A stretch of 30,492 bases of DNA, from positions 1-30,492 of the forward strand of contig CANQVY010000001.1 in the NCBI GenBank assembly GCA_947627405.1. Direction: 5' to 3'. The DNA comes from an uncultured Bacilli bacterium (GTDB lineage Bacteria > Bacillota_I > Bacilli_A > RF39 > UBA660). This document shows positions 1,829-29,917 of this stretch, in pieces. The position numbers and the translations under genes are program-made. The notes below the pieces were generated by a model that saw only the letters and a list, made by a program, of their open reading frames with translations, was not told the DNA's origin and ran no database searches. Numbering within the stretch: position 1 is the first letter of the stretch; each line of letters starts with the position of its first letter.

Positions 1829-2947
1829 ATGAAAATTAAAGTAAAAAAAATTGTTTTATTGGAGGAGTTGAATAAAGTTTCAAAAGCTTTATCAAGTAAA
1901 AATATTATACCTGTTTTATCAGGAATCTGTTTTGAAGCGAAAGAAAATAAATTAATTCTTACAGCTTCTGATAATGATATAACTATACAAACCTATTTAA
2001 ATGAGGATAATGAAAATTTAGAAATAAAAGAACAAGGAAATATAGTTATTCAAGGTAAATATATCTTAGATATTGTTCGAAAATTACCAGATGAATATAT
2101 AAATATAGATGTAATTGATGATTCTAAAGTATCTATATATACAGATAATAGTGAATTCAATTTAAATGGAATTAATAAAAAGGAATATCCTACAATTCAT
2201 TTAGAAGAAAGTAAAAATAAAGTTATGTTAAGCAAAGATTTATTTAATGAAATTATTAATCAAACTTGTTTTGCAGCTAGTAATGATGAATCAAAACCTT
2301 CTTTAACAGGAATTAACTTTAATATTACGGGAAATATTTTAGAATGTAATTCTACGGATTCCTACAGATTATCAAGAAAAATAGTCAATTTAAGTGATAT
2401 TAATGAATCTTTTAATTTAATTATCCCAAGTAAAAACTTATTGGAATTTGCTAAAATATTAACGGAAGAGGATATGATTGAAATAAATATTTTTAATAAT
2501 AAATTGTTATTTAAGTATAATCATATTTTATTTCAAACACGTTTAATTAGTGGTACATATCCTAATACATCTAATTTAATTCCTGAAGATCCTATATTAA
2601 AAATAAATATTGATAAAGATTTACTTTATAATACAATAGATCGAACAAGTATTTTAGCTACAGATAAAGAAAAAAATATTATTACTTTAGAAATACAAGG
2701 AAATCATTTAAATTTAAAATCTTTTGTTGCTGAAATAGGAAAAGTAGAAGAAAAAATGATGATAAACAATGAAATGCAAGAGAATATAAAAATTTCATTT
2801 AGTTCGAAATATATGATGGAAGCTTTAAAAGCCTTTTCAACAGAAACTGTGGATATTTGCTTTTTTGGAGAAGTTAAACCGATTATTATTAATTCTACCG
2901 AGGATAAAACATTGACTGAACTTGTTTTACCTATTCGAACTTATTAA
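1829..2947 (+). CDS. dnaN: DNA polymerase III beta sliding clamp
   Basis: 372 aa. IIPVLSGI, STDSYRLS, FQTRLISGTYP and C-terminal LVLPIRTY. Follows dnaA. Confidence 0.98.
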   Translation: MKIKVKKIVLLEELNKVSKALSSKNIIPVLSGICFEAKENKLILTASDNDITIQTYLNEDNENLEIKEQGNIVIQGKYILDIVRKLPDEYINIDVIDDSKVSIYTDNSEFNLNGINKKEYPTIHLEESKNKVMLSKDLFNEIINQTCFAASNDESKPSLTGINFNITGNILECNSTDSYRLSRKIVNLSDINESFNLIIPSKNLLEFAKILTEEDMIEINIFNNKLLFKYNHILFQTRLISGTYPNTSNLIPEDPILKINIDKDLLYNTIDRTSILATDKEKNIITLEIQGNHLNLKSFVAEIGKVEEKMMINNEMQENIKISFSSKYMMEALKAFSTETVDICFFGEVKPIIINSTEDKTLTELVLPIRTY

Positions 2948-2964
2948 TTTTTTCATAAATCAAC

Positions 2965-3024
2965 AAAATTCTACAAAATGAAGTGTTATTTTAATGATAC
3001 TACATTTTATGTAGAATTTTTTTT
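2965..3024 (+). terminator. Long imperfect hairpin plus U-tract between dnaN and comK
   Basis: AAAATTCTAC (2965-2974) pairs with GTAGAATTTT (3011-3020), AAAATG with CATTTT, and AGTGTTATT with AATGATACT (G-U pairs). T8 at 3017-3024. Confidence 0.6.
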
Positions 3025-3035
3025 AGGGGGATTTT

Positions 3036-3500
3036 ATGAAAGATTATGAAATTAATGATGATACTTTAGCAATCATTCCAGTTGATAATAAAAAAACTAA
3101 AGTATTAGAAAAGGACTATGAGTATGTAATTGAACAAAATGCATATAAGGTAATGGATTATAGTTGTCAATATTTTGGTAGTACTTATGAAGGTAGAAAG
3201 GGTGGAAGTAAAAATATTTTAGGAACAGGATATAAAGTGCCTATTTTAATAAGAGAAGATAATTATATTATTTTTTTTCCAACTGAATCTCCATTATTGG
3301 ATACATGTATGTGGATATCATTACATAATATAGAAAGATTTGAAAGAAGCGATAATAATACCACTAAAATTTATTTTAAAGATGGTAAAAACATTATTAT
3401 AGATGTGTCTTTTCGATCTATAGAAAATCAAATTTTAAGATCGACTCGATTAGAATCTGTCTTACGAAATCGATCAAATTCAAAAAATAATATTAAATGA
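3036..3500 (+). CDS. comK: ComK-family competence transcription factor
   Basis: YEIN-DTLAIIP, SCQYFGSTYEGRK, KVPILI, IFFPTES, WIS, F-DG and SIENQILR align by eye with B. subtilis ComK (YEVNGATIAVLP, SCRFFGSSYAGRK, FLFPTLS, WIS, SFENQVYR). SD AGGGGG. Confidence 0.9.
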   Translation: MKDYEINDDTLAIIPVDNKKTKVLEKDYEYVIEQNAYKVMDYSCQYFGSTYEGRKGGSKNILGTGYKVPILIREDNYIIFFPTESPLLDTCMWISLHNIERFERSDNNTTKIYFKDGKNIIIDVSFRSIENQILRSTRLESVLRNRSNSKNNIK

Positions 3501-3511
3501 TAAAATATATT

Positions 3512-3540
3512 AAAAAAAGGACAAAATTGTTCTTTTTTTT
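3512..3540 (+). terminator. Intrinsic terminator after comK
   Basis: A7-GGACA-AAAT-TGTTC-T8. Confidence 0.6.
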
Positions 3541-3549
3541 GTCTATATA

Positions 3550-3558
3550 TGTTATAAT
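3550..3558 (+). promoter_or_regulatory. Extended -10 sigma-A promoter for recF-gyrB-gyrA
   Basis: TGTTATAAT (TGnTATAAT). No good -35 at 17 bp. Confidence 0.55.
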
Positions 3559-3586
3559 ATACTTATGTGTATAGGAGTATTACAAA

Positions 3587-3631
3587 ATGGTAAAAGGTGA
3601 TTTTATGAGCATTTTTATGGCAATAACGTGA
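3587..3631 (+). CDS. Putative leader micro-ORF MVKGDFMSIFMAIT (or MSIFMAIT from 3605) coupled to recF
   Basis: SD AGGAG before ATG 3587 and SD AAGGTGA before the in-frame ATG 3605. Stop TGA 3629-3631 overlaps recF GTG 3628. Confidence 0.4.
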   Translation: MVKGDFMSIFMAIT

Positions 3632-4737
3632 TTTTAAAAAAATTAAGCTTAATAAATTTTAGAAATTATCAAAAAATTTCTATTTCGTTTAATAATACAG
3701 TAAATATTTTTATAGGAAATAATGCTCAAGGTAAAACAAATATTCTTGAAAGTATCTATGTTTTAGCTTTGACTAAATCTCATCGTAATGTTAATGATGT
3801 TCATCTAATTAAATATAATGGGGAATATACCAAAATAGAGGGAAAAATAAAAAAAAACAATTTAATTGATACTTTAGAAATAAAAATAACAAAAACAGAA
3901 AAAAAAGTATTTAAAAATAAAAACAATGTAAAAAGAATATCTGATTATATATCAAATTTGAATGTAATACTATTTACACCTGATGATTTAGAAATTATAA
4001 AAGGATCTCCTTCTATTCGAAGAAATCTATTAAATATTGAAATAAGCCAGATTTCTAATCAATATATTACTATTTTAAATGAATATAACAAATTATTAAA
4101 AAATAGGAATGAATATTTGAAATTATTATATGTGAATCATTTTAGTGATAAAAAATATTTAGATATTATAACTGATCAGCTAATCGAAAAAGCAATATAC
4201 ATCTATAAGAAAAGAAAAAATTTTATTGATGATATAAATAAAAATATATCTAATATCTATCGTTTTATTACTGGAATAGACGGATTATATATTCGATATA
4301 TAAATAATTGTGATATAGATATTTTTGATGAAAATAAAATTAGAGAACAAATGCTTAAGAAATACAAAAATAATTATAAAAAAGAAATTTTAAATGGAAT
4401 GACTTTATATGGGCCTCATAGAGATGATTTTGAATTTCTTATAGGAGATGAAAATTTAAAGTTATTTGGTTCACAAGGACAGCAAAGGTTAAGTATTATT
4501 TGCTTTAAATTATCAGAAATTGATATTTTCAAAGAAAAAAACAATACAAGTCCCATTTTATTATTTGATGATATTTTTAGTGAAATTGATAAGATAAAAA
4601 AGAATAAATTAATAAAATTGATAAATAAGGATATACAAACAATTATAACTGCTACGGATTTAAGAGGAATGAGTAAAAATTTGATTGAAAAATCTTCCAT
4701 TTTTAAAGTAGCATCTGGAAAAATAGAAAGAAGGTAA
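3628..4737 (+). CDS. recF: DNA replication and repair protein RecF
   Basis: LINFRNY, Walker A GNNAQGKTN, GPHRDD, GSQGQQR and LLFDDIFSEID. GTG start. Confidence 0.98.
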   Translation: MILKKLSLINFRNYQKISISFNNTVNIFIGNNAQGKTNILESIYVLALTKSHRNVNDVHLIKYNGEYTKIEGKIKKNNLIDTLEIKITKTEKKVFKNKNNVKRISDYISNLNVILFTPDDLEIIKGSPSIRRNLLNIEISQISNQYITILNEYNKLLKNRNEYLKLLYVNHFSDKKYLDIITDQLIEKAIYIYKKRKNFIDDINKNISNIYRFITGIDGLYIRYINNCDIDIFDENKIREQMLKKYKNNYKKEILNGMTLYGPHRDDFEFLIGDENLKLFGSQGQQRLSIICFKLSEIDIFKEKNNTSPILLFDDIFSEIDKIKKNKLIKLINKDIQTIITATDLRGMSKNLIEKSSIFKVASGKIERR

Positions 4738-4740
4738 TTT

Positions 4741-6666
4741 ATGGAAAATGTCAAAATGGAATCTTATGATTCCTCATCAATTCAAGTATTAGAAGGGCTA
4801 GAAGCAGTCAGAAAAAGGCCAGGAATGTATATTGGAACAACAAGTTCTAGAGGACTTCATCATTTAGTATGGGAGATTGTTGATAATGCTATTGATGAGG
4901 CTTTAGCGGGATATTGTACTCATATAGAAGTAGAAATTGGAAAAGAAAATACGATTACCGTTAAAGATGATGGAAGGGGAATTCCAGTTGGAATTCATCA
5001 AAAAACAGGAAAGAGTACGGTAGAAACTGTTTATACGGTTTTGCACGCAGGTGGTAAATTTGGAGGAGGAGGATACAAAGTATCCGGAGGTTTACATGGT
5101 GTTGGTGCCAGTGTAGTAAATGCATTAAGTGAATGGTTAGAAGTAAAGGTATATAAAAATGGACATGTTTATTTTCAAAAATATAGTAATGGAGGACATC
5201 CAGAAGAAGAATTAAAAATAATCGATACATGTCCTGAAGAAAGAACTGGAACTACTGTAACTTTTAAACCAGATCCAGAAATTTTTACTGAAACCACAAT
5301 ATTTGATTATAGTATTTTGCGAACTAGATTAAGAGAACTTGCTTTTTTAAATAAGGGATTAAAAATAAGCCTATATGATTTAAGAGAGGATAATAAAAAA
5401 GAGTCCTTTCATTATGAAGGTGGATTAAATGAATATGTTGAAATGTTAAATAAAGATAAGAAACCTATTCATGAAACTATAATTTCTTGTAATGGAAATG
5501 AAAATGATATATCTTTAGAAGTAGCATTACAATATAACGAAACTTATAACGCAAGCATATATTCTTTTGTAAACAATATAAATACACCTGAAGGTGGAAC
5601 ACACGAAGATGGTGTCAAGAGAGCTTTAACAAGAATTCTTAACAAATATGCTAAAGAAGCGGGTATCTTAAAAGAAAAGGACGATCCTCTTAGTGGAGAA
5701 GATGTTAAAGAAGGTTTGACTATGATTGTATCTATAAAACATCCAAATCCACAATTTGAAGGACAAACCAAAACAAAATTAGGAAATAGTGAATGTCGAG
5801 GAATATCCGATAAGATTTTTTCAGCGGCTTTAGAAAGATTTTTGATGGAAAATCCAGATCAAGCTCGAGTTATAATTGATAAAGGTATGACTGCATCAAG
5901 GGCAAGAGTTGCTGCAAAAAAGGCAAGAGAATTAACTAGAAGAAAAGGGGATTTGGATATAACAAATTTTTATGGTAAACTTTCTGATTGTAAAAGTAAA
6001 GATCCTTCAGAATGTGAAATTTTTTTAGTGGAAGGAGATTCTGCTGGAGGATCAGCTATTAAAGGAAGAGATAGCATGAGACAAGCTATTTTACCACTTA
6101 GAGGAAAAATATTGAATGTAGAAAAAGCTAGATTAGATAGAGCTTTATCTAATGAGGAAATTCGAACGATTATAACTGCTTTTGGGACAGGAATAGGAGA
6201 CGAATTTAATCTAGATAAATTAAGATATGATAAAATTATTATAATGACGGATGCTGATGTAGATGGATCGCATATTCGAGTCTTATTATTGACTTTATTT
6301 TATCGTTTCTTTAGACCTATTGTAGAAGCTGGACATGTATATGCGGCTCAACCACCTCTATTTGTAATAAAACATGGTAAGACGATAAAATATGTTTTAA
6401 ATGAACAAGAAAGAGATGAATATTTAAAAACATTATCTCCAAATACAAAGTATGATATTATGCGTATGAAAGGTTTAGGAGAAATGGATGCAGAGGAACT
6501 AAATGAAACAACAATGGATATAGAAAAAAGAGTTTTAAGACAAATAACTGTTGAAGATGCAATGTCTGCTGATGATACTTTTTCAAAATTAATGGGTGAA
6601 GAAGTAGAACCAAGAAGAAAATTTATTGAAGAAAATGCAGTTTATGTACAAAATTTGGATATTTAG
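4741..6666 (+). CDS. gyrB: DNA gyrase subunit B
   Basis: [41 protein letters not shown] and DADVDG. Confidence 0.99.
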
Positions 6667-11904: not shown

Positions 11905-12501
11905 ATGTATCCACAAAGTTTAAAAAACTTAATAGAAGCTTTTAAATTGCTGCCTGGTATAGGCGAAAAAACAGCCGAAAGATTAGCTTTTTCAATATTA
12001 GATTTAGAAGAGGAAAATGTAGAATTTTTTTCAGAAGAATTAAAAAAAGCTAAGCATAATATTAAAAATTGTTCAATATGTAATTCATTAACAGAAAACA
12101 AAATATGTGATATATGTTCAGATCAAACTAGAAATGACAATATACTATGTGTGGTTGAAGATCCCAAAAATGTTATTATTTTTGAAAAAACTGGTTTGTT
12201 TCATGGAAAATATCATGTTTTAAATGGTTTAATATCACCACTTGATGGTATAAACCCAGAAGATATTGGGTTAAATAAATTAATTGAAAGAATAAAAACA
12301 GAAAATTTTAAGGAAATAATTATAGCTGTAAAACCTAGTATAGAAGGGGAAACTACAGCATTATATATTAAAAGTGTTTTAGAAGGATTAGATATTATTG
12401 TTTCTAGAATTGCAAGTGGGGTGCCTATAGGAGCGGATATGGAATATATTGATGTTATGACTTTAGAGAGAGCTTTACAGGATCGCATTAAAATGGAATA
12501 A
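11905..12501 (+). CDS. recR: Recombination mediator RecR
   Basis: LPGIGEKTAERLAF, C4 zinc finger, VVEDPK, YHVL and EGETTA Toprim. Confidence 0.98.
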   Translation: MYPQSLKNLIEAFKLLPGIGEKTAERLAFSILDLEEENVEFFSEELKKAKHNIKNCSICNSLTENKICDICSDQTRNDNILCVVEDPKNVIIFEKTGLFHGKYHVLNGLISPLDGINPEDIGLNKLIERIKTENFKEIIIAVKPSIEGETTALYIKSVLEGLDIIVSRIASGVPIGADMEYIDVMTLERALQDRIKME

Positions 12502-12524
12502 AATTATAAAAACGATCATAATTT
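12496..12524 (+). promoter_or_regulatory. Putative sigma-E (mother-cell) promoter of bofA
   Basis: GAATAAA (12496-12502), N14, CATAATTT (12517-12524) fits the sigma-E pattern kmATAww-N14-CATAcawT. bofA is sigma-E controlled in B. subtilis. Confidence 0.6.
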
Positions 12525-12538
12525 AAATTGGTGATCGT

Positions 12539-12727
12539 GTGAAAAAAACAATAGTAAATATATTAAAAAAATTTATTTTTGGTTTTATTATATTATATGG
12601 TTATAATTTGATTGCTTCATCATTTAATATGACAATTCCCATTAATATAATTACAATAATATTAGTAAGTGTATTGGGAGCTCCAGCTTTATTTGCGCTT
12701 ATTATGTTACTATTAGTTGTTTATTGA
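12539..12727 (+). CDS. bofA: Pro-sigmaK processing inhibitor BofA family
   Basis: 62 aa, two hydrophobic segments, IPINIIT...LGAPA motif. Syntenic after recR. GTG start with SD GGTGA. Confidence 0.8.
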   Translation: MKKTIVNILKKFIFGFIILYGYNLIASSFNMTIPINIITIILVSVLGAPALFALIMLLLVVY

Positions 12728-12734
12728 GGTGTTT

Positions 12735-13553
12735 ATGATTCATAATAAATATTATAACAATTATTCACAATTTTTTGATTATTTTCATAAAATAATAAAG
12801 GAGGACAAGCTTTCTCACGCTTTTTTAATTGAATGTAGGAATGTAAATAATTATAAAGAAATTATTTTAATGATTATAAAGGAAATTTTAGAAAGTAATA
12901 AATATAATGAGGATTTGGCAATAGAAAATCTTGTTGAAAATAATAATTACCCTGAATTGAAAATCATAGAACCCATTAATCATGTTATTCGAAAAGAACA
13001 ACTTTTAAATTTACAAAAAGAATTTAGTGTCCAATCTATTTATGGGAGATATTTAATTTATATTATTGATGGGGCAGAATATTTAAATAAATCTTCAGCA
13101 AATACAATTTTAAAATTTTTAGAGGAACCGCCATCAAACATTATAGCATTCTTATTAACAAATAATAATTATAATGTGATTGAAACAATTGCATCTAGAT
13201 GTCAAAAAATTACTTTGGGAGAGATAAAACATGAGAATGCATTTTCACCTGATGTTCAAGCCCTTGCAGAAATCTTAGAAAACAAAAAAGATAAGGCTTT
13301 AGGATATATCGATAATAGTTGGTACTCCTTTGATCGGGAAAGTTTAATTATAAGGCTGAAAGAATTACAAAATTATTACTTATTTCAATTAACAAAGATA
13401 AAACAGTTAAGAGAAAGTAGTAATATCAAAGCCTTATCAAATATTTCTAAAAAAATAATAATTATAGATGATTGTTTAAATAAATTACGTTATAATGTTA
13501 ATATAAAGCTTTTAATTGATAAATTCATTTTATCTATGGTTGGGGTGATTTGA
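12735..13553 (+). CDS. holB: DNA polymerase III subunit delta'
   Basis: LSHAFL, SANTILKFLEEPP and TIASRCQ. Start set at ATG 12735 after SD GAGGTG. Confidence 0.9.
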   Translation: MIHNKYYNNYSQFFDYFHKIIKEDKLSHAFLIECRNVNNYKEIILMIIKEILESNKYNEDLAIENLVENNNYPELKIIEPINHVIRKEQLLNLQKEFSVQSIYGRYLIYIIDGAEYLNKSSANTILKFLEEPPSNIIAFLLTNNNYNVIETIASRCQKITLGEIKHENAFSPDVQALAEILENKKDKALGYIDNSWYSFDRESLIIRLKELQNYYLFQLTKIKQLRESSNIKALSNISKKIIIIDDCLNKLRYNVNIKLLIDKFILSMVGVI

Positions 13554-14338
13554 TGTACAATGTAGTAGGAATATCTTTAGAAGGAAGCAGTAAAATTTAT
13601 TTTTTCGAAACAAACAATATTGCTTTGAAAAAGGGACAATTTGTAATTACGGAATTAGATAGTGGATTAGGTTATGGAAAAGTTGTTATTGGTCCAAAAA
13701 ATGAAAAAAAAGAAAATTTGATTTTTCCATTAAAAAAAGTAATTCGTATTGCAACACAACAGGATATAAAACAGTATGATATGGCAAAAAAGGAAAGTAT
13801 AAAGGTTATTAAAAAAGCCAAAGCCATTGCTGATAAATTAAAGTTAGATATGAATTTTGTTGATGCACAGTTTACCTTTGATAAGAGCCAGTTGTATATA
13901 AAATATACAGCTGATGATCGAATTGATTTTAGAGAATTAGCGAAGAAGTTAGCGCAAGTTTATAAAACACGAATTGAATTGAGGCAGATTGGTGTTAGAG
14001 ATAAAGCAAAGCAAATGGGTGGATTAGGACCTTGCGGGCGAATATTGTGCTGTAATTCTTTTTTAAATGATTTTGAGAGTGTATCTATAAATATGGCCAA
14101 AAATCAGTACTTGTCTTTAAATCCTACAAAAATTAATGGAGTATGTGGAAGATTATTGTGTTGTTTAAACTATGAAGATGAAATTTATACAGAATTGAAA
14201 AAAGGTATGCCTGCGATAGGGGATAAATATAAAACAGAAAGAGGCTTGGCTGAAGTGGTGGAAGTGAATCTATTCAAAAAATATTTTTTTGTTGAAACAA
14301 GTGATAAAATAATAGAAAGAATAGATATGGAAAAATGA
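13553..14338 (+). CDS. ricT: RicT/YaaT (PSP1 domain) protein
   Basis: ADDRIDFRELAK, RIELRQIGVRD, GPCGRILCC, GVCGRLLCCL-YE. ATG overlaps holB TGA. Confidence 0.95.
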   Translation: MYNVVGISLEGSSKIYFFETNNIALKKGQFVITELDSGLGYGKVVIGPKNEKKENLIFPLKKVIRIATQQDIKQYDMAKKESIKVIKKAKAIADKLKLDMNFVDAQFTFDKSQLYIKYTADDRIDFRELAKKLAQVYKTRIELRQIGVRDKAKQMGGLGPCGRILCCNSFLNDFESVSINMAKNQYLSLNPTKINGVCGRLLCCLNYEDEIYTELKKGMPAIGDKYKTERGLAEVVEVNLFKKYFFVETSDKIIERIDMEK

Positions 14339-21346: not shown

Positions 21347-22870
21347 ATGAAAAAGAACACTTATTATATAACAACGCCAATCTATTATCCAAGCGCTAAT
21401 TTTCATATTGGACATTGTTATACAACAATAATTGCTGATTCAATTGCAAGGTATAAAAGAATGCAAGGATATGATGTTTGTTTTCAAACAGGAACAGATG
21501 AGCATGGTCAAAAAATAGCTACAAGAGCAAAAGAGGCGGGATTAGATCCAAAATCTTATGTGGATAATATTGTAGAAAATGCGAAAGATTTATGGAAATC
21601 TTTAAATATATCTTATGATAAATTTATTCGAACAACAGATAAATTTCATGAATTAGCTGTACAGAAAATATTTACAAAGTTATATGAGCAGGGAGATATT
21701 TATAAAGGAGAATATAAAGGATTATATTGTACGCCGTGTGAATCTTTTTGGACTTCTACACAATTGATAGATGGTAAATGTCCCGATTGTGGAAGAGAAG
21801 TACATGAAGTAAAGGAAGAAGCATATTTTTTAAAATTATCCAATTATGCGGATCAATTAGTAAAATATATTGAGATGCATCCAGATTTTATTCAACCAGA
21901 ATCTAGAAAAAATGAAATGATTAATAATTTTATTAAACCAGGCCTTGAAGATTTATGCGTTTCAAGAACTAGTTTTAGTTGGGGGATTCAAGTTCCATTT
22001 GATCCTAAGCATGTGGTTTATGTATGGTTAGATGCATTAACAAATTATATTACTTCTTTAGGGTATATGAGCGATGATGATACCGAATTCAAAAAATATT
22101 GGCCAGCGGATTTACATTTGGTTGGAAAAGAAATTACGCGTTTTCATACTATTGTATGGCCTATCTTGTTAATGGCATTGGATTTACCAATTCCTAAACA
22201 AGTTTTTGGGCATGGTTGGTTAGTTATTAATGGAGGTAAAATTTCCAAATCACTTGGAAATTATAAAGATCCCAGAGAATATATTAAAGAATATGGAGTA
22301 GATGCTGTTCGTTATTTTGTATTAAGGGAAGTCCCTTTTGGCAATGATGGTACATTTTCTGAAGAAGCTTTAATTCATAGAACTAATGCCGATTTAGCCA
22401 ACAATTTAGGTAATTTAGTTAATCGAACCATTTCAATGGCTAATAAATATTTTGATGGCCAAATAGCTAATAAACACGAGAAAGAATCTATTGATAAGGA
22501 ATTATTCGATGCAGTAAATAAGGTAAATCAAATAGTGAAAGAAAAGATGGAACTTTTGCATGTAAGCGAAGCTTTAGAATCTATATTTGATGTTCTTAGA
22601 CGAAGCAATAAATATATCGACGAGACTACTCCTTGGATATTAGCAAAGGATGAATCAAACAGAAATCGATTAGAAACAGTTCTTTATAATTTATTAGAAT
22701 CTATACGTGTTTGTGCTACTTTGTTAGCGCCTTATCTTCCTGATACATCAAAAAAAATTAAGGAACAGTTAAATAATTTTGAGTCAAGTGACAATTACTT
22801 AGAAAACAATCATTATCAAGTAAATATTCCTACTCCTTTATTTCAAAGAATTGATAAAAAGGTAGAATAA
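21347..22870 (+). CDS. metG: Methionine--tRNA ligase (short form)
   Basis: YITTPIYYPS, HIGH, TGTDEHG, CTPC/CPDC knuckle, YVWLDAL and KISKS. Confidence 0.98.
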   Translation: MKKNTYYITTPIYYPSANFHIGHCYTTIIADSIARYKRMQGYDVCFQTGTDEHGQKIATRAKEAGLDPKSYVDNIVENAKDLWKSLNISYDKFIRTTDKFHELAVQKIFTKLYEQGDIYKGEYKGLYCTPCESFWTSTQLIDGKCPDCGREVHEVKEEAYFLKLSNYADQLVKYIEMHPDFIQPESRKNEMINNFIKPGLEDLCVSRTSFSWGIQVPFDPKHVVYVWLDALTNYITSLGYMSDDDTEFKKYWPADLHLVGKEITRFHTIVWPILLMALDLPIPKQVFGHGWLVINGGKISKSLGNYKDPREYIKEYGVDAVRYFVLREVPFGNDGTFSEEALIHRTNADLANNLGNLVNRTISMANKYFDGQIANKHEKESIDKELFDAVNKVNQIVKEKMELLHVSEALESIFDVLRRSNKYIDETTPWILAKDESNRNRLETVLYNLLESIRVCATLLAPYLPDTSKKIKEQLNNFESSDNYLENNHYQVNIPTPLFQRIDKKVE

Positions 22871-22981
22871 TTGTAAACTTTTATGTAAATCTGAAAAATA
22901 ATTTGTATATTATATTTCCTTGTCTATTACTTTATGATATATTACTAAAGTAGTATAAAAAGCATTAGGAAAGGGAACTTT

Positions 22982-23137
22982 ATGAAAATCAAAATTAATG
23001 TAGTCTCGATTGCGTTAATTTGTGCTATTTTAGCTGTTGCTGTTTTATATTATGCTAAAAGAAATATTGTTGATTTAGTTTATTTAATATTTTTAATTAC
23101 GCAATTAATAAGATATATTCGTAGTGATTTAAGTTGA
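22982..23137 (+). CDS. Small two-TM membrane protein (51 aa), not in ORF track
   Basis: MKIKINVVSIALICAILAVAVLYYAKRNIVDLVYLIFLITQLIRYIRSDLS. Strong SD AGGAAAGGGA; fills an otherwise empty intergenic region. Confidence 0.7.
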   Translation: MKIKINVVSIALICAILAVAVLYYAKRNIVDLVYLIFLITQLIRYIRSDLS

Positions 23138-23157
23138 TATGAATATATCTTTTTTAG

Positions 23158-23166
23158 TGGTATAAT
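23158..23166 (+). promoter_or_regulatory. Extended -10 promoter of tatD
   Basis: TGGTATAAT. Confidence 0.5.
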
Positions 23167-23195
23167 AAGAATAGAGAAATAAGAGTGGTGAGAAT

Positions 23196-23954
23196 ATGTT
23201 TATAGATACACATTTACATTTATCAACTGAGGATTATCATATCGATGAAATCAAAGATATTTTAAGACAGGCAAGAAGAAATGGGGTAAAAAAATATATC
23301 GTTTGTGGATGTAGTAAAAGTGAAATTAAAAATGTGTTAAAAATCTATCCGCAGATGCGTAGTATTTCCTTTGCATTTGGATATCATCCTGAGTTTGCTG
23401 ATAGCATTACTAAGCAAGACTTATTAGAATTACAAGAATTCATCTGTCATGATCGTGTAGTAGCTATTGGAGAAATTGGATTAGATTATCATTATAACAA
23501 TGAAAATAGGCAGCAACAACAGAAAATATTTCGGGAACAACTCCAGTTAGCTGAAAAATTAAATTTGCCGGTAACTATTCACTCAAGAGATGCAATAGAA
23601 GATACTTATCAAATATTATCTCAATATCATGTGAAAGGAGTTATTCATTGCTTTAGTGGAAGTCTTGAAATGGCACAAAAATTTATTAAATTAGGTTTTT
23701 ATCTAGGTATAGGAGGAGTGATTACTTTTAAAAATAGCAAATTAAAAAACGTGATTGCTAAAATAGGACTTGAACATGTTGTTTTAGAAACCGATTCTCC
23801 CTATTTGTCTCCAGAACCATATCGGGGAAAGAAAAATGGCCCTCAAAATATTTATCATATTGCTTGTTTTCTTGCTGATTTATTAAATATTTCTATAGAA
23901 GAAGTAGCAAAAATAACTACAACAAATGCAATGTGTATATTTGACTTGAAGTAA
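23196..23954 (+). CDS. tatD: TatD family deoxyribonuclease
   Basis: IDTHLH, GYHP, AIGEIGLDY, IHSR, VIHCFSG and LETDSPYL. Confidence 0.97.
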   Translation: MFIDTHLHLSTEDYHIDEIKDILRQARRNGVKKYIVCGCSKSEIKNVLKIYPQMRSISFAFGYHPEFADSITKQDLLELQEFICHDRVVAIGEIGLDYHYNNENRQQQQKIFREQLQLAEKLNLPVTIHSRDAIEDTYQILSQYHVKGVIHCFSGSLEMAQKFIKLGFYLGIGGVITFKNSKLKNVIAKIGLEHVVLETDSPYLSPEPYRGKKNGPQNIYHIACFLADLLNISIEEVAKITTTNAMCIFDLK

Positions 23955-23969
23955 TAGATATGTTATACT
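23941..23969 (+). promoter_or_regulatory. Strong sigma-A promoter of the 3D-domain gene and first pilin-like gene
   Basis: TTGACT (23941-23946), 17 bp spacer, TATACT (23964-23969), with TG extension. Confidence 0.75.
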
Positions 23970-24001
23970 TTTAATAGTGTTATATAATGGATGGTGGTTT
24001 T

Positions 24002-24589
24002 ATGAAACAGCTTACTATTATGCTTAGTAAACGTTTTCTAATATTCCTATTTATAATAATGTGTATGTTTGTTATTTCAACTGGAAATAAAAGAACAACA
24101 ATTTTAGCGAATAACAAAAATAATGTAAAATCGGTACAGGCTGTACATATTGTTAATAAATACAATAGTCTTCTCGAAAATGCTAAGCCGGTTGAAGTAA
24201 AATCTTTAGCCGCAGCAGTTAAAATAGCACCAAAGAAATCGGTAGCATTTTCAGGAAGTATGACAGCTTATGGTCCAGATTGTCCAGGATGTGGGGGCAG
24301 AACGAGTTGTCCTCCTAGGCAAAATCTATCTAACGGGAATGTTTATTTTAAAGATAAGGATTATGGTACTGTACGTATTTTAGCAAGTGATTCTTCATTG
24401 CCATGTGGAACGATTGTTAAAGTTTCGAATATTTCTATAACAAATTCTTATATATATGGTGTGGTATTAGATAGAGGGTCTGCAATAAAAGGAACAGTAA
24501 TGGATATAATGTATGAATCAGAAAGGAAAGCTTTATCCTTTGGAAGACAATATAATGTAAGATATGAGATCGTGAGATGGGGCTGGTAA
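24002..24589 (+). CDS. 3D-domain cell-wall protein (YabE-like) with N-terminal membrane anchor or signal
   Basis: TAY..C..C, ILASD, LPCGT-V-V and VLDRG-AIKG--MDI (three Asp). Syntenic with yabE after tatD. Confidence 0.85.
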   Translation: MKQLTIMLSKRFLIFLFIIMCMFVISTGNKRTTILANNKNNVKSVQAVHIVNKYNSLLENAKPVEVKSLAAAVKIAPKKSVAFSGSMTAYGPDCPGCGGRTSCPPRQNLSNGNVYFKDKDYGTVRILASDSSLPCGTIVKVSNISITNSYIYGVVLDRGSAIKGTVMDIMYESERKALSFGRQYNVRYEIVRWGW

Positions 24590-24593
24590 AATT

Positions 24594-25226
24594 ATGAAAG
24601 AAAAAAAAGAAAGTGCAAAACGAATTGTTTTTACAATACTTGGTATTCTATTATTAATATGTAGTGTAATGATTGTTGGATTTGCTATTTTTGTATTTGA
24701 AGATACTTCAAATCATGATAATTCTATTACTACGGGGACAAATCCAGAGGGAACCCTTTCTTTTGCTTATAATGAAAATAGCAATGGAGTCGAGTTAATG
24801 AATGCAATTCCCATTGATGATGTAACGGGGAAAAAACTTACCAATAGTGATAAAGCTAAAGGAATTAACCAAGGTTATTTTGATTTTTCCATCAGGGCTA
24901 GTGGAACATCTGCAGGGAAAATAAAATATCAAATCTATGCTACATTAGAAAATGATAGTAATATGGATACGAAATACATAAAAGTATATTTAACAGATGA
25001 TAAAAATAATCCATATCGCGGGTATGATTCGGATGTTCCTGTTTTTTCCTCATTAGATAAATATAGTAGCCAAAAAAATTCAAAAATATTATATTCTGAT
25101 GAAATAAATGTTAAAGAAGATGTAATCAAAAGATTTCGATTGAGATTGTGGGTAGCTAAAGATTATTCAGATGGTGCGACTTCTAAGACATTTAAAATAA
25201 AAGTGAATGTAAGAGCGACTGCTTAA
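24594..25226 (+). CDS. TasA/CalY-like SipW-dependent secreted protein (pilin-like 1)
   Basis: Basic N-region and hydrophobic core, then GFA-IF...NSITTG. Beta-rich; clear paralog of 25287-25907. Confidence 0.65.
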   Translation: MKEKKESAKRIVFTILGILLLICSVMIVGFAIFVFEDTSNHDNSITTGTNPEGTLSFAYNENSNGVELMNAIPIDDVTGKKLTNSDKAKGINQGYFDFSIRASGTSAGKIKYQIYATLENDSNMDTKYIKVYLTDDKNNPYRGYDSDVPVFSSLDKYSSQKNSKILYSDEINVKEDVIKRFRLRLWVAKDYSDGATSKTFKIKVNVRATA

Positions 25227-25231
25227 ATAGG

Positions 25232-25253
25232 AAAAGTGGTTGCTTTTTTTTTT
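25232..25253 (+). terminator. Intrinsic terminator after pilin-like 1
   Basis: AAAAGT-GGTT-GCTTTT plus a T10 run. Confidence 0.55.
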
Positions 25254-25268
25254 AATATCATGTATTAT
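25240..25268 (+). promoter_or_regulatory. sigma-A promoter of pilin-like 2
   Basis: TTGCTT, 17 bp spacer, TATTAT. A further TATAAT lies at 25269-25274. Confidence 0.6.
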
Positions 25269-25286
25269 TATAATAGGTGATGGCAC

Positions 25287-25907
25287 ATGAATACAAATGA
25301 AGAAAGAGAATATAAAAACGATTCAAAAAGTATTTTATTAATGGTTTTAGGAGTAGCTATTTTAGTTGTAGCGGTTATTGGTGTTTCTTTTGCAGCTTTT
25401 GCCGCCTCTAAAGCAACAAGTAATGTAAATACACTTACAACAGGAGCAATTTCTATGGCCTTTCAAGATACGACTTATATTGATATACATAATGCAATGC
25501 CAATATCTGATAAAGAAGGGATGGCTTTAACAGGTGATTATAACACGATGAAATTTACTGTATCTGCAAATGTATCAGGTAGTACTACAATTGATTATGT
25601 AATTTCTGCAGTTGATGTGACCGATCAAAATGGAAATAAAATTCCTGAAAAATATTTAAAAATCTATATGACGGGTGAAGGCTCTATTATTTCCACACCA
25701 AAATTATATAGTGATTTGGAAAATGTTCAGCATGAAGATCAAGTGGATAAGGTATTAGCGCATAGCTCTTTTGTAACAACTGCTTCTTCAGCACAAGAGT
25801 ATAAAAAAGATTATGAATTAAAAATGTGGATAGATGAAAAGGCAGTAATTGGAAAAGATCCAATGACATTTAAAATAAGAGTTAGATTAGATGCTGAGCA
25901 AAAATAG
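25287..25907 (+). CDS. TasA/CalY-like SipW-dependent secreted protein (pilin-like 2)
   Basis: IGVSFA-AF...NTLTTGAISM resembles TasA GTWA-AF...TFASGTLDL and CalY NNTFAAGTLDL. Adjacent to sipW. Confidence 0.75.
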   Translation: MNTNEEREYKNDSKSILLMVLGVAILVVAVIGVSFAAFAASKATSNVNTLTTGAISMAFQDTTYIDIHNAMPISDKEGMALTGDYNTMKFTVSANVSGSTTIDYVISAVDVTDQNGNKIPEKYLKIYMTGEGSIISTPKLYSDLENVQHEDQVDKVLAHSSFVTTASSAQEYKKDYELKMWIDEKAVIGKDPMTFKIRVRLDAEQK

Positions 25908-25921
25908 ACTTAGTCTTTTTT
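25901..25921 (+). terminator. Weak intrinsic terminator after pilin-like 2
   Basis: AGAC-TTA-GTCT flanked by A and T tracts. Confidence 0.35.
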
Positions 25922-25960
25922 GTTTTCATATTATATAAAAGAATAATTTGGGGTGAGTCT

Positions 25961-26599
25961 ATGGACAAAACAATGTTAAAAAAGATAGGCGATATATTAC
26001 ATTTCGTTGCTAAAACACTATTATATGTAGTCTTTGTTTTCATGGTTTTTATCATTTTTGTAATTGCTTGTTATGTTATAGGAATTCAAAGAAATTTAAA
26101 AAATAATAATTATGAGGCACCATTATATAGTGCATACGTTATTGTCAGTCCTAGTATGCATCCAACAATCAAAGTAAATGATGCAGTTATTGTAAAAAGA
26201 ACAAGTGCTAAAAAAATAAAAGAGGGAGACATTATTACGTTTGTTTCTAGTGATACAAGAACTTCAGGAATTACCATTACTCATCGAGTTATAGAAGTAT
26301 TAAAGGATAGTGATGGAAATCGATTGTTTCGAACAAAAGGGGATAACAATAATGTTGCGGATTCCTCTTTAGTTAAAGAAAACGATTTATCGGGAAAAGT
26401 TATTATGAAAATTCCAAAAATTGGTTATATTCAATATTTTATTTCTAGAAAATATGGATGGATCATTGCGGTTGTAATTCCATGTTTGGGTATTATTATT
26501 TATGATATATTAAAGATCATTAAAACGATTTCAAGTGGTTTTATTCCGAATCAAAAAAAAGATAAAAAATATAAAGGTAAGAAGGAGAAGAATTTATGA
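25961..26599 (+). CDS. sipW: Signal peptidase I, SipW (ER/archaeal, Ser-His) type
   Basis: N-terminal TM, VIVSPSMHP (Ser), GDIITF, ITHRV (His), FRTKGDNN--AD, IPKIGY and C-terminal TM. Confidence 0.93.
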   Translation: MDKTMLKKIGDILHFVAKTLLYVVFVFMVFIIFVIACYVIGIQRNLKNNNYEAPLYSAYVIVSPSMHPTIKVNDAVIVKRTSAKKIKEGDIITFVSSDTRTSGITITHRVIEVLKDSDGNRLFRTKGDNNNVADSSLVKENDLSGKVIMKIPKIGYIQYFISRKYGWIIAVVIPCLGIIIYDILKIIKTISSGFIPNQKKDKKYKGKKEKNL

Positions 26600-27126
26600 A
26601 AAAGAATCGAGTATGTTTATGTATAGCTTTAGCGTTTTTAATTATTTTATTTACTTTTTTCTCTACATTCATGTGGTATAAATTCTTTGATAAGAATACT
26701 GAAGAAAAACCAATAGTAAATCAGTTATATATAAGCAACAATGCACAACAAGTAGTAGAACATGTTGGCGTTGATGATGAAAATGATATCAATAATGCTT
26801 CGGATGCTTATTCTTTTTCTGTAGAGAATACAAGCAAAAGGAATCTTACTTATCAATTAAAAATTAATGAAATCGCTCCTTCTTTGTTAACAGATGGATG
26901 TATGCAAGAGGATTTATTAACAAGAGATCAATTAATCTATCAATTGAAATGTAATGGAAGCGTAATTACAAAGGAAAGTATGACAAATATCAAAGATAAT
27001 ACAATTGATATTAAAACAATAAAAGCGGGTGCGGTCAATAATTATGAATTAACTTTTTGGGTAGATCATAATCAAAAAGATTATTTGAATAAGCATTATC
27101 ATTATGAAATAAATTTATCTGTATAG
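26596..27126 (+). CDS. Divergent pilin-like protein 3
   Basis: N-terminal hydrophobic helix. YSFSVEN, LTYQLKI, YELTFWV and terminal YHYEINLSV match the strand pattern of the two paralogs. ATGA overlap with sipW. Confidence 0.55.
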   Translation: MKKNRVCLCIALAFLIILFTFFSTFMWYKFFDKNTEEKPIVNQLYISNNAQQVVEHVGVDDENDINNASDAYSFSVENTSKRNLTYQLKINEIAPSLLTDGCMQEDLLTRDQLIYQLKCNGSVITKESMTNIKDNTIDIKTIKAGAVNNYELTFWVDHNQKDYLNKHYHYEINLSV

Positions 27127-27136
27127 GGGTGATTCG

Positions 27137-27832
27137 ATGAAACAAATTGCAAAGGAATATGCAAAAATATTTTCTTATACTATTACTGGAATTGTATTTG
27201 TTTTTGCTTCCTTTTATTTAATTATTAATATATATCATATGGAAGAAATCGCAGATACATTTACTTTTTCTTTAAGTGAGGATTCAAATTATAATGAAAT
27301 TAAGAATCGAATATCTAATATTGAAAAGTATACAAATGTTAATATTAATAAAAGTAAGGGAAAAGCAAATAAGCAATTTTTAAGTTCATTAAATACAAAA
27401 TTAAGTTATTGTAAAAATGCTTTAAACAATGAGACGTTTAAAGAGTTAAAAAACAATAAAAAAATTGGAATAAAAGATGTTTATAATTTACGAAATACAT
27501 TAAATTCAAATGTTATTAATGGTTGTTTAATAGAACAATTGCATTACCTTACTTATTATAATGATAAAGATGGAAATTCGGATGGATTATCCAATTATTC
27601 TGATTATATAAAACTCAACATAGACATTATTAGTAGTAGGCTGAATTATATTGATAAAGATTTATTAAATAATAGTAGTTATTATTATAACTCTAGTAAT
27701 GCGTCCACTGCAGTGATGAATAAAACAAAGGATATGTATGATGACGTTATGACAACTTATAATCAATCTGCAACATTGGTTGAAATGCTTTCAAAATGGT
27801 TATACACGGAAGTAGGTGTTACAAATGATTAA
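27137..27832 (+). CDS. Hypothetical membrane-anchored protein (231 aa)
   Basis: One N-terminal TM, then an Asn/Lys-rich probably helical domain with two Cys. SD AGGGGTGA. Confidence 0.75.
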   Translation: MKQIAKEYAKIFSYTITGIVFVFASFYLIINIYHMEEIADTFTFSLSEDSNYNEIKNRISNIEKYTNVNINKSKGKANKQFLSSLNTKLSYCKNALNNETFKELKNNKKIGIKDVYNLRNTLNSNVINGCLIEQLHYLTYYNDKDGNSDGLSNYSDYIKLNIDIISSRLNYIDKDLLNNSSYYYNSSNASTAVMNKTKDMYDDVMTTYNQSATLVEMLSKWLYTEVGVTND

Positions 27833-28256
27833 AATGATTAATGGATTGTTGTATGGTATAAAATATTTTTTACTTATTCTTAGTTTTGCTTTTGGTAGTT
27901 ATATTATTTTATATATGTATCAGAGGTTGAATAAGTCTTTAGTGGATTCTATTTATATTGCTTTACCTTTTGTAATTTTATTTATATTATTTGCCATTAA
28001 TATGTTGGCTAATCAAAAAAGAGTAACATCAAATTTGTTTTATAATTTAACTTGTTGTCTTGTATTTTGTGTAATTTTATTTATAGAGTATCGAGCATTA
28101 TTTGATACAAATATGATAGCAAACAGCAAATTGGGATACAACATTAACTTTAATTATTTTGCTGATAATATTAATGCAATAAAAGTAATGATTGTTGGCC
28201 TTATTTTAGGAGATCTATTATTTATGCTGCCAAATAGTGATGATAAGAAAGCCTAG
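27825..28256 (+). CDS. Hypothetical integral membrane protein (about 4 TM)
   Basis: Four hydrophobic segments. ATG 27825 after SD AGGTG; overlaps the upstream gene by 8 nt. Confidence 0.75.
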   Translation: MIKMINGLLYGIKYFLLILSFAFGSYIILYMYQRLNKSLVDSIYIALPFVILFILFAINMLANQKRVTSNLFYNLTCCLVFCVILFIEYRALFDTNMIANSKLGYNINFNYFADNINAIKVMIVGLILGDLLFMLPNSDDKKA

Positions 28257-28267
28257 TGCTTTTTTTT
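28248..28267 (+). terminator. Weak intrinsic terminator closing the sipW operon
   Basis: AAAGC-CTAGT-GCTTT plus a T-run. Confidence 0.45.
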
Positions 28268-28297
28268 GTTTTGTGCTATATTAGTTTTGGTGGTTTT

Positions 28298-29095
28298 ATG
28301 GATTTACATGAATTTCAATTTAAAAAAGCATTTGGACAAAATTTTTTGAAAGAAAAAAAAGTTATTCACAATATTGTGGATAAAGCTAATATCGCTGAAA
28401 ATAGCTTAGTTATTGAAATAGGTCCTGGAGCAGGTGCTTTGACGCAAGAATTAGTTAAGAAAGCCTCTTTTGTGTTAGCCTATGAAATTGATGAAAGATT
28501 AAAGGAACCTTTAAAAGAAAAATTTCAACATGAGGAAAATATTCAATTTATATTTGATGATTTTTTAAAACGAAATATAAAAGAAGATATTCAAGGTTTT
28601 TCTTATGAAAATCTATATGTTATAGCCAATCTTCCTTATTATATTACTACCCCAATTATCACAAAAGTAATAGAAGAAAAATTAAATATAAATAAGCTAG
28701 TTGTTATGGTTCAAAAAGAAGTTGGTGATCGCTTTGCTGCGAAACCTTCTAGTAGAGAATATAATTCTTTGACTGTTTATCTAAATTATTATTTTGATAT
28801 TCATAAATTATTCTTTGTTTCAAAAAATGCATTTATTCCAAAACCAAATGTAGATAGTGTGGTGGTTGAATTAAAACGAAAAACAAATTTAATGCAATTA
28901 AATGATGAAAATTTATTCTTTAAATTGGTAAAAGACAGTTTTCAATATAAACGAAAAAATTTGAAAAATAATTTAAAAGGCTATGATTTAGATATCATAG
29001 AGAATGTTTTGGGTGCATATGGATTAAGTTTGCAAGCAAGAGCTGAACAATTATCATTAGAAATATTTGTTGCGATCAGTAATGCTTTAGCATAA
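28298..29095 (+). CDS. rsmA: 16S rRNA A1518/A1519 dimethyltransferase (KsgA)
   Basis: KKAFGQNFL, VIEIGPGAGALT, YEID, ANLPYYITTPI, MVQKEV and F-PKPNVDS. ATG 28298. Confidence 0.97.
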   Translation: MDLHEFQFKKAFGQNFLKEKKVIHNIVDKANIAENSLVIEIGPGAGALTQELVKKASFVLAYEIDERLKEPLKEKFQHEENIQFIFDDFLKRNIKEDIQGFSYENLYVIANLPYYITTPIITKVIEEKLNINKLVVMVQKEVGDRFAAKPSSREYNSLTVYLNYYFDIHKLFFVSKNAFIPKPNVDSVVVELKRKTNLMQLNDENLFFKLVKDSFQYKRKNLKNNLKGYDLDIIENVLGAYGLSLQARAEQLSLEIFVAISNALA

Positions 29096-29117
29096 ATAAT
29101 AAAAAAAGGCATATAAT
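29090..29117 (+). promoter_or_regulatory. Possible mother-cell (sigma-E/K type) promoter of yabG
   Basis: GCATAAA, N13, CATATAAT. The -10 also contains TATAAT, so the sigma assignment is ambiguous. Confidence 0.4.
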
Positions 29118-29134
29118 TTGTTGGAGATGATTGT

Positions 29135-29917
29135 ATGCCTTTTCATATTGGGGATATTGTTAGTAGAAATTCCTATGGGAATGATATTCTCTTCAAAGTT
29201 GTTGCCATTAATAATAATGATGTAGAACTTAGAGGAATTGATGTTCGACTATGTGCTGATAGTAATATTGGTGATTTAAGAAAAGAGGATCCATCAAAAT
29301 TAAAAGATGATAAAGAACTTTTCGATCGGTTTGGAGGAATCGTTAGTTTAGATAGAGATGAATATTTTTACATGCCAGGGAAAATATTACACATTGATTC
29401 TGATGGGGATTACCTTAATCGATGTATGCGGTTTTATAATAATGCTGGAATTCGTGCTTATGGGCTGAATCTTCCTGAAAATAAAGTGTATACGGAAATA
29501 GAACAATACTTGAATGATTTAAGGCCAGATATTGTAGTAATAACTGGGCATGACTCCTATTTAAAAAATAAAGGCAATAAAAACGATATTCATAACTATA
29601 AAAATAGCGAAAATTTTATTCGAGCAATCGAGAGTGCTAGAAAATATGAAGATAGCCCAGATAAACTTATTATCATTGCAGGGGCTTGTCAATCGAATTA
29701 TGAAGAATTAATCAAAGCAGGAGCTAATTTTGCCTCAAGTCCAAAAAGAATTAACATTCACGCTTTGGATCCTGCTATTATTGCTGTTTCTACAGCTCTT
29801 TCTGATCGTAATAAATCTATTGATTTAATTGATATCTTAAATAAAACAAAATATGGTCCTGAAGGAATAGGGGGAATTATTACAAATGGTGCTATGTATA
29901 CGGGGTATCCTAGATGA
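29135..29917 (+). CDS. yabG: Sporulation peptidase YabG
   Basis: GDIVSRNSY--DILFKV, PGKILHID-D, ITGHD, AGACQS, GANFASSP and IHALDP. Confidence 0.96.
   Translation: MPFHIGDIVSRNSYGNDILFKVVAINNNDVELRGIDVRLCADSNIGDLRKEDPSKLKDDKELFDRFGGIVSLDRDEYFYMPGKILHIDSDGDYLNRCMRFYNNAGIRAYGLNLPENKVYTEIEQYLNDLRPDIVVITGHDSYLKNKGNKNDIHNYKNSENFIRAIESARKYEDSPDKLIIIAGACQSNYEELIKAGANFASSPKRINIHALDPAIIAVSTALSDRNKSIDLIDILNKTKYGPEGIGGIITNGAMYTGYPR

Follow-up and report, generated by a model that had tools for sequence, protein, structure and literature searches.

The stretch of DNA considered here (the window) comprises 30,492 nucleotides (nt) of contig CANQVY010000001.1 from an uncultured Bacilli bacterium of the RF39 lineage, and all positions below are given in its numbering. 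Between the gene of a 3D-domain cell-wall protein and rsmA it carries a cassette of six open reading frames (ORFs), which encode two paralogous subunits (A and B), a signal peptidase of the SipW class, a divergent relative of the subunits (C) and two membrane proteins (D and E). With a little better than even confidence, we read it as a SipW-processed surface system of the TasA superfamily that forms polymers. The six co-oriented genes of the initial annotation are all present on the + strand, as is every other gene of the window (G+C content about 27%), and the motifs quoted there were all found in the translations. The genes of the cassette and its two neighbors are the following.

24594-25226, + strand: subunit A (210 amino acids, aa), paralog of B, 195.5 bits on the family profile
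25287-25907, + strand: subunit B (206 aa), paralog of A, signal end S-F-A followed by A-F, beta-sandwich
25961-26599, + strand: signal peptidase I of the SipW class (endoplasmic reticulum (ER)/archaeal type, S26B), TIGR02228 104.9 bits
26596-27126, + strand: C (176 aa), divergent family member by profile-profile match to the A/B family
27137-27832, + strand: D (231 aa), orphan single-pass membrane protein, present in 21/21 cassette loci
27816-28256, + strand: E (about 143-146 aa), orphan polytopic membrane protein, present in 21/21 cassette loci
23987-24589, + strand (context only): 3D-domain (YabE-like) cell-wall protein, PF06725 28.9 bits against a cut-off of 23.8
from GTG 28256, + strand: rsmA ORF, TIGR00755 254.8 bits

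Judging by its sequence, the peptidase encoded at 25961-26599 is a member of the SipW class and not the ortholog of Bacillus subtilis SipW, because it misses the cut-off of the Bacillus SipW equivalog model NF046067 (96 bits against 190). It scores well above the cut-off of TIGR02228 (51.85 bits), and the SPSM (Ser), THRV (His) and GDNN boxes can be read in its translation, so that its earlier description as an intact SipW holds. It is the only SipW-type match in the genome, which possesses two LepB-type peptidases elsewhere.

The predicted processing sites of the presumed substrates are highly conserved. Among 89 members of the A/B type the hydrophobic segment ends in G-[VI]-[ST]-[FY]-A; position -3 is occupied by S, T, G or A in 89/89, position -1 by A or S in 88/89 and position +2 by F or Y in 82/89, and the predicted cleavage point is followed by a conserved x-[FY]-x-[YF]-[ST] and, further on, by N-[TS]-I-x-T-G. 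The same signal end was found in all six other paralogs examined in the window's genome. By its residues this is a classical signal-peptidase-I site with the TasA/CalY pattern, and the likeness of the signal ends and of the following motif to the N-termini of TasA and CalY, initially noticed in the window, extends to a near-invariant feature of the family. The proposed check with the hidden Markov model of the SipW-cognate signal (TIGR04088, cut-off 19 bits) gave a mixed outcome: A, B and C had no match at E<=1, while a paralog from the same genome (C33:754-858) reached 22 bits. The model matches 3/89 family members at E<0.1.

It had also been expected that the subunit genes would accompany sipW in related bacteria, and this was observed at two scales. 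Of 121 sampled genomes from the order (0.6-1.6 Mb each), 106 encode SipW (TIGR02228, E<=1e-10) and 85 the family; SipW is found in 84 of the 85 with the family, and the family is absent from 14 of the 15 without SipW, these counts being descriptive, with no statistical test and with related genomes that are not independent. At the scale of the locus, the subunit genes adjoin sipW in 21/21 loci. Since the cleavage site is near-invariant, co-occurrence reaches 84/85 and adjacency is universal among these loci, the dependence of the family on SipW is well supported, and the SipW of the cassette is the probable enzyme of cleavage. Many relatives have extra genes with a SipW domain, in open frames of about 370-420 aa. 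In one cassette, SipW (L030:3668-4906, 412 aa) ends in a long C-terminal tail of low complexity, which is uninformative.

The subunits themselves are related to each other at very different distances. A and B are true paralogs, as had been claimed, with 25% identity over 216 columns (BLASTP, E 2e-14). C has no similarity to A or B by BLAST, but the profile of its 16 orthologs aligns with the profile of the A/B family with 98.65% probability (hhalign, E 4.9e-16, 167 columns), and for this reason the third, divergent subunit copy postulated beside sipW should be regarded as real; a C ortholog from a relative bears the family motifs ALPMSD and YELRVW. A consists of an N-terminal signal or transmembrane segment ending in G-F-A and of one beta-sandwich domain, and none of its 28 homologs has a Pfam domain. 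Sequence searches with A, B and C against the chains of the Protein Data Bank (PDB) gave nothing useful. The AlphaFold2 model of B (mean predicted local distance difference test, pLDDT, 90.7) has a helix at residues 12-41, a linker of lower confidence at 41-50 and the strands of a beta-sandwich at 46-205. Across the family, the positions N48, G53, P72, G78, F90 and W181 (B numbering) are conserved in at least 90% of sequences.

The predicted processing of C differs from that of A and B. The residue at position -1 is small in only 6/16 C orthologs versus 88/89 members of the A/B type. W-Y-x-x-F after the helix is conserved among the C orthologs. As the cleavage site is not conserved, C probably keeps its helix and stays in the membrane, where it may act as an anchor.

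The arrangement of the cassette was compared in 21 loci from different genomes across the order, which were picked because a SipW match adjoined family matches. All of them have the order metG-tatD-(3D-domain gene)-[one to five A/B-type genes]-sipW-(C)-D-E, where round brackets denote genes that may be missing: 12 of the loci include the 3D-domain gene, 15 include C, and all 21 have both D and E. The downstream flank is rsmA in 19/21, usually together with yabG. SipW is present in 21/21 of the cassettes and pil genes in 0/21. In a sister group of bacteria (L053, L057, L064, L068, L073 and L095; positions about 1900-4600 in each), the place between metG-tatD and rsmA is taken by a simpler cassette. 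It consists of three family genes and sipW, followed directly by rsmA, with no C, D or E, and the [ST]-[FY]-A signal end is absent from the first two of the family genes. Because the sister group has subunits and SipW in the absence of C, D and E, the invariant core of the system is formed by the subunits and SipW, and C, D and E are additions of one clade.

D and E were found in all 21 cassettes compared, and their earlier designation as novel membrane accessories was upheld: neither has a match to a Pfam, NCBIfam, PDB-sequence or ESM Atlas family, and ESM Atlas feature searches returned unnamed clusters. In D the residues F26, N31, H34, C92, C130 and Y208 are invariant across 46 sequences. 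Its AlphaFold2 model (pLDDT 84.9) has a transmembrane helix at 2-38 plus five helices, from which D is predicted to be a single-pass protein with an extracytoplasmic five-helix bundle, two of its invariant residues being cysteines. A fold search with this model returned generic helical bundles only, namely rhodopsins and designed bundles with Z of about 10, which the tool flags as the noise level for helical proteins. The invariant residues of E are P51, N77, R93 and D97, and its weak matches are to YibE_F only (E 0.017 and 0.005). Alignment and an upstream AGGTG make ATG 27825 the most likely start of E, which on this placement overlaps the stop of D.

The genes are tightly packed. The order in this part of the window is metG, a 51-codon ORF, tatD, the 3D-domain gene, the six ORFs of the cassette, rsmA, the gene of a YabG-type peptidase and spoVG. 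A starts 4 nt past the stop of the 3D-domain gene, the stop of sipW and the start of C overlap by 4 nt, and the stop of E overlaps the rsmA ORF. No site resembling an intrinsic terminator was found within 22800-29300, that is, from the end of metG through rsmA, and promoter-like matches in this region do not exceed the frequency seen with shuffled sequence. The best of them, TTGACT-17-TATACT with TG (23941-23969), lies just 5' of the 3D-domain gene. The 51-codon ORF between metG and tatD (22982-23137) encodes a hydrophobic peptide. The rsmA ORF, when read from GTG 28256, has a hydrophobic 14-residue extension, and the gene may actually begin at the internal Met of MDLHEF (about 28298).

A, B and C are far from being the only carriers of their domain. 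With B as a query, an exhaustive phmmer search yielded 1716 cluster representatives at E<1e-3, of which 368 had E<1e-10; most of these homologs are about 200 aa long, many are longer (300-1500 aa) and begin with the domain, most of them lack a Pfam domain, and a few have Big_2 or cadherin-like repeats. Their names in the source databases are absent or "hypothetical protein". A structure search of the ESM Atlas retrieved the same domain (template-modelling (TM) score about 0.7, root-mean-square deviation (rmsd) about 2 Å) ahead of DUF285/leucine-rich repeat (LRR), cadherin-like, Flg_new and DUF6273 domains, in all cases from Bacillota. The genome of the window, an assembly of 1.2 Mb in 148 contigs with 88% completeness, has 13 matches to the family profile, and some genomes of the order have at least 26 copies. 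Such numbers of scored copies were seen in G077, G029, G106, G016, G096 and G105, whose sizes are about 1.1-1.5 Mb. The majority of the copies in G077 have open frames of 640-710 aa and the N-terminal module in common. The initial picture of three subunits must be revised, as A, B and C are not a self-contained system but the core members of a very large family that spans the lineage. The N-terminal module also stands at the head of about 10 further proteins of this genome and of dozens from relatives; many of these have C-terminal domains of the adhesin type, and therefore the single SipW probably serves the whole family.

The distant kinship with TasA proposed at the outset has evidence on both sides. 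In a comparison of the B model with 48,161 PDB chains by VIA-align, the TasA fibre (8aur_A) was the first match and the longest one (Z 7.1, 135 residues, rmsd 4.2), followed by the biofilm scaffold RbmA and several donor-strand pilin domains; VIA realignment of the Foldseek list added RbmA alone (Z 6.4). The commonest weak NCBIfam match among the 89 members, scanned singly, is the TasA model NF046066 (8/89, best E 0.0016). Between the two groups stands a bridging protein encoded next to sipW in a relative (L074:2645-3220). Its whole length aligns with the family profile (E 6e-16), it exceeds the gathering score of the TasA family PF12389 (25.8 vs 22.5 bits, residues 12-68 only), and it matches a profile of TasA-like proteins from Bacillaceae at the N-terminus and in the C-terminal W-x-D … x-V-x-x-x-Q strands. 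Relatives of this protein (90% and 81%) have PF12389 in precomputed annotation. The Bacillaceae profile comprises 12 proteins from sipW loci, some of which pass PF12389 themselves; loci of Bacillaceae were used because PF12389 is found in only 1/301 genomes of the phylum sample. The profile of the A/B family aligns with this Bacillaceae profile colinearly from the signal to the C-terminus (192 columns, E 0.005).

A number of results count against our interpretation. The probability of the last alignment is only 7%. A, B and C pass no curated model of TasA or of the SipW signal: on PF12389 (cut-off 22.5) B scores 13.3 bits, A and C have no match, and the best score in the whole-genome scan was 11.7 bits. 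Foldseek, with which TasA had been expected to emerge, did not list it among the PDB or Swiss-Prot matches of the B model, no PDB match having E<1e-3 and the TM score being about 0.25 in both databases. In VIA-align, Z values below 8 are common by chance, so that the 7.1 obtained for TasA falls in a range also given by models that have no true match, and the PF12389 bridge is confined to the first 60 residues or so. C, D and E are not essential, as the sister lineage manages without them. Finally, no terminator-like site sets the cassette off from the housekeeping genes, which would suit a constitutive role in the envelope equally well. Taking both sides together, we infer a remote relationship, in which the family would be a very divergent branch of the TasA/BsaA superfamily whose best-kept part is the N-terminal module of signal and first strand; we do not assign it to PF12389.

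The characterised members of this superfamily suggest how the cassette could work. SipW releases the N-terminal strand of TasA (residues 28-38), which then completes the beta-sandwich of the following subunit, and TapA may give the first strand (PMC9674648). BsaA of Clostridium perfringens polymerises by the same donor-strand mechanism with an additional N35-K74 isopeptide lock, and its oligomers are membrane-anchored; the TasA/BsaA relatives are reported to be highly divergent and often present as several paralogs per putative operon with signal-peptidase genes nearby (PMC11580942). By analogy, the most likely product of the cassette is a fibre or coat on the cell surface. Export of A and B would proceed through Sec and be followed by a cut after G-[VI]-[ST]-[FY]-A, made by the ER-type signal peptidase of the cassette. 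The cut would free an N-terminal segment ahead of the beta-sandwich, which we take for a very distant relative of that of TasA, CalY and BsaA, and the freed segment, whose alternating aromatic residues would form the donor strand, would be inserted into the sandwich of a neighboring subunit, giving a fibre or coat independent of sortase, as in TasA and BsaA. C, having the same fold and presumably remaining uncleaved, might stay in the membrane as a base or nucleator in the manner of TapA, and D together with E might serve as a membrane platform for assembly or anchoring. The polymerisation and the parts assigned to C, D and E are conjectures.

As to the alternatives, the domain could belong to a SipW-specific module of export and retention that involves no polymerisation, A, B and the long paralogs being monomeric secreted or surface proteins. 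The N-terminal region would then be no more than a determinant of SipW recognition and cleavage, perhaps with non-covalent binding to the wall, and the short copies would be a coat, decoys or variable antigens. Both the many unrelated partners fused at its C-terminus (DUF285/LRR, cadherin-like, Big_2, Flg_new and DUF6273 domains) and its abundance (reaching 26 copies or more in a 1.2 Mb genome) look more like a generic leader or stalk than like a pilin, and the similarity to TasA lies mainly in the signal and first-strand region. However, the conservation spans the whole sandwich, well past the cleavage site, short copies without cargo stand in tandem beside SipW in 21/21 loci, as is typical of structural subunits, and the nearest characterised relatives polymerise (PMC9674648; PMC11580942). 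We regard this alternative as unlikely, though well worth keeping in view. An association of the same proteins with spores or the septum, where they would be deposited on the spore or the dividing wall, concerns the biological role rather than the mechanism. It is suggested by the position of the cassette among tatD, the 3D-domain gene, rsmA, yabG, a veg-like gene and spoVG, which is fixed across the order and not interrupted by a terminator-like site, by the fact that TasA was first described as a spore-associated protein (PMC9674648) and by the predicted sporulation of RF39-type lineages (PMC10868615). This neighborhood is nevertheless the general metS-yabD-yabE-ksgA-yabG arrangement of Bacilli, which is not sporulation-specific as a whole, and the adhesin-type fusions indicate interaction with a host or a surface, so that a role of this kind in place of adhesion or biofilm formation seems improbable to us.

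The other mechanism to be weighed is that of archaeal-type type IV pilins, in which the helix would be retained as the core of the filament and assembly would depend on PilB, PilC and PilD. The B model does consist of a helix and a beta-sandwich, and the family profile weakly matches the helix and first strands of the archaeal pilins 6nav_A (E 0.02) and 8tib_A (E 0.04). Yet the class III motif expected before the hydrophobic stretch is not conserved, a near-invariant -3/-1 site is located at the end of this stretch, and the modelled helix is not packed on the sandwich, the linker between them having low pLDDT. In the window's genome, genes of a prepilin peptidase and PilC lie on contig C16 at 6 kb from two family members, and ATPases of the PilB/PilT type are encoded as well. 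Against this, the genes on C16 are separated by unrelated ones, one of them on the opposite strand, the cassettes have SipW and never pil genes, and PilD occurs in 119/121 genomes of the order regardless of the presence of the family. We consider a type IV pilus highly improbable. The PilC-like and prepilin-peptidase genes of C16 (L012) occupy 3986-6221 and the two family members (321 and 324 aa) 12050-14004; the intervening genes, judged without a family search, are one of a RecG-like helicase and three ORFs of 312, 472 and 231 aa, the 312-aa one being cysteine-rich and on the opposite strand. We rejected this linkage as coincidental, given the unrelated genes in between and the near-universal presence of PilD in the order.

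If the TasA-like reading is adopted, the system can be placed among the known ones as follows. It is similar to the TasA/TapA/SipW system of B. subtilis and to CalY/TasA of B. cereus in that a peptidase of the SipW class adjoins its predicted substrates, in the small residues at -3 and -1, after which come x-F and a strand with the N/T-x-x-x-G-T-[LI] pattern, in the single beta-sandwich domain of about 170 residues without LPXTG, and in the presence of a divergent accessory paralog (TapA there, C here). The similarity of its proteins to TasA and CalY in sequence is under all curated thresholds, and the module has multiplied to tens of copies, with fusions to adhesin domains. Further differences from the TasA operon are the membrane helix that C apparently retains in place of a cleaved signal, the proteins D and E, to which nothing there corresponds, and the fixed context of housekeeping genes in which the cassette is embedded. 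The sipW-bsaA-bsaB-bsaC operon of C. perfringens likewise combines several remote TasA paralogs with sipW (PMC11580942); there is no von Willebrand A-domain protein (BsaC) and no two-component genes at the locus described here. The initial annotation had known of no characterised locus of such a composition. D and E are new, but the composition as a whole is less novel than was thought, as operons of several TasA/BsaA paralogs with sipW had already been described (PMC11580942). BsaA oligomers are reported to be membrane-anchored and not linked by sortase. A conserved Asn in the N-terminal strand is also shared with BsaA, in which N35, E56 and K74 form a triad; in the present family, N48, E61 and K79 (B numbering) are conserved in 94%, 75% and 62% of the family, and the residues at these positions are N-E-K in A and N-D-M in B. 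The pattern recalls the N-E-K isopeptide triad of BsaA as a candidate likeness only.

With sortase-dependent and chaperone-usher pili the system shares the logic of a multi-subunit operon with major, minor and anchor components, and the B model has weak fold matches to the pilin domains of PapG, FimG and CsuE (Z 5.3-5.8). In contrast to these pili, A, B and C lack LPXTG at their termini, and the cassette has no sortase, chaperone or usher. The system was initially called sortase-independent, and at the locus, where no gene product ends in LPXTG and no sortase is present, the term is correct; it should be limited to the locus because the genome has five sortases, all on other contigs. Donor-strand complementation is reported for archaeal threads and for cannulae, chaperone-free in the latter, and the archaeal bundling pili (AbpA) are reported to be similar to the TasA system (PMC9245690 and related papers). 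None of our searches gave a sequence or fold match to AbpA, archaeal threads or cannulae. Our literature search found no publication linking SipW with RF39, Tenericutes, Erysipelotrichales or DUF285, and a look-up of RNA sequencing runs had no entry for the locus.

Bacilli of the RF39/RFN20 type are common in the gut, have genomes of about 1 Mb and have so far escaped cultivation. In these small genomes the family takes a notable share, having no Pfam domain and no name and being tied to a dedicated SipW. It merits a domain model of its own, as the curated models of TasA and of the SipW signal miss most of its members. Should its subunits polymerise like TasA and BsaA, donor-strand fibres would reach a new and very divergent branch of proteins, with two new accessories (D and E) and a possible base subunit in the membrane (C), which could explain how the fibre is retained on the cell. 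A further, distinctly doubtful extension of this idea is that the SipW signal and the TasA-like sandwich form a universal plug-in, by means of which the short paralogs and those carrying LRR, DUF285, cadherin-like or Big_2 domains would all join one donor-strand fibre nucleated and held in the membrane by uncleaved C together with D/E, and in which N-E-K isopeptide locks might form in some subunits, as in BsaA. If this were true, the result would be a sortase-independent, chaperone-free and combinatorial display, which would be the main route by which these gut bacteria with reduced genomes expose variable adhesins.

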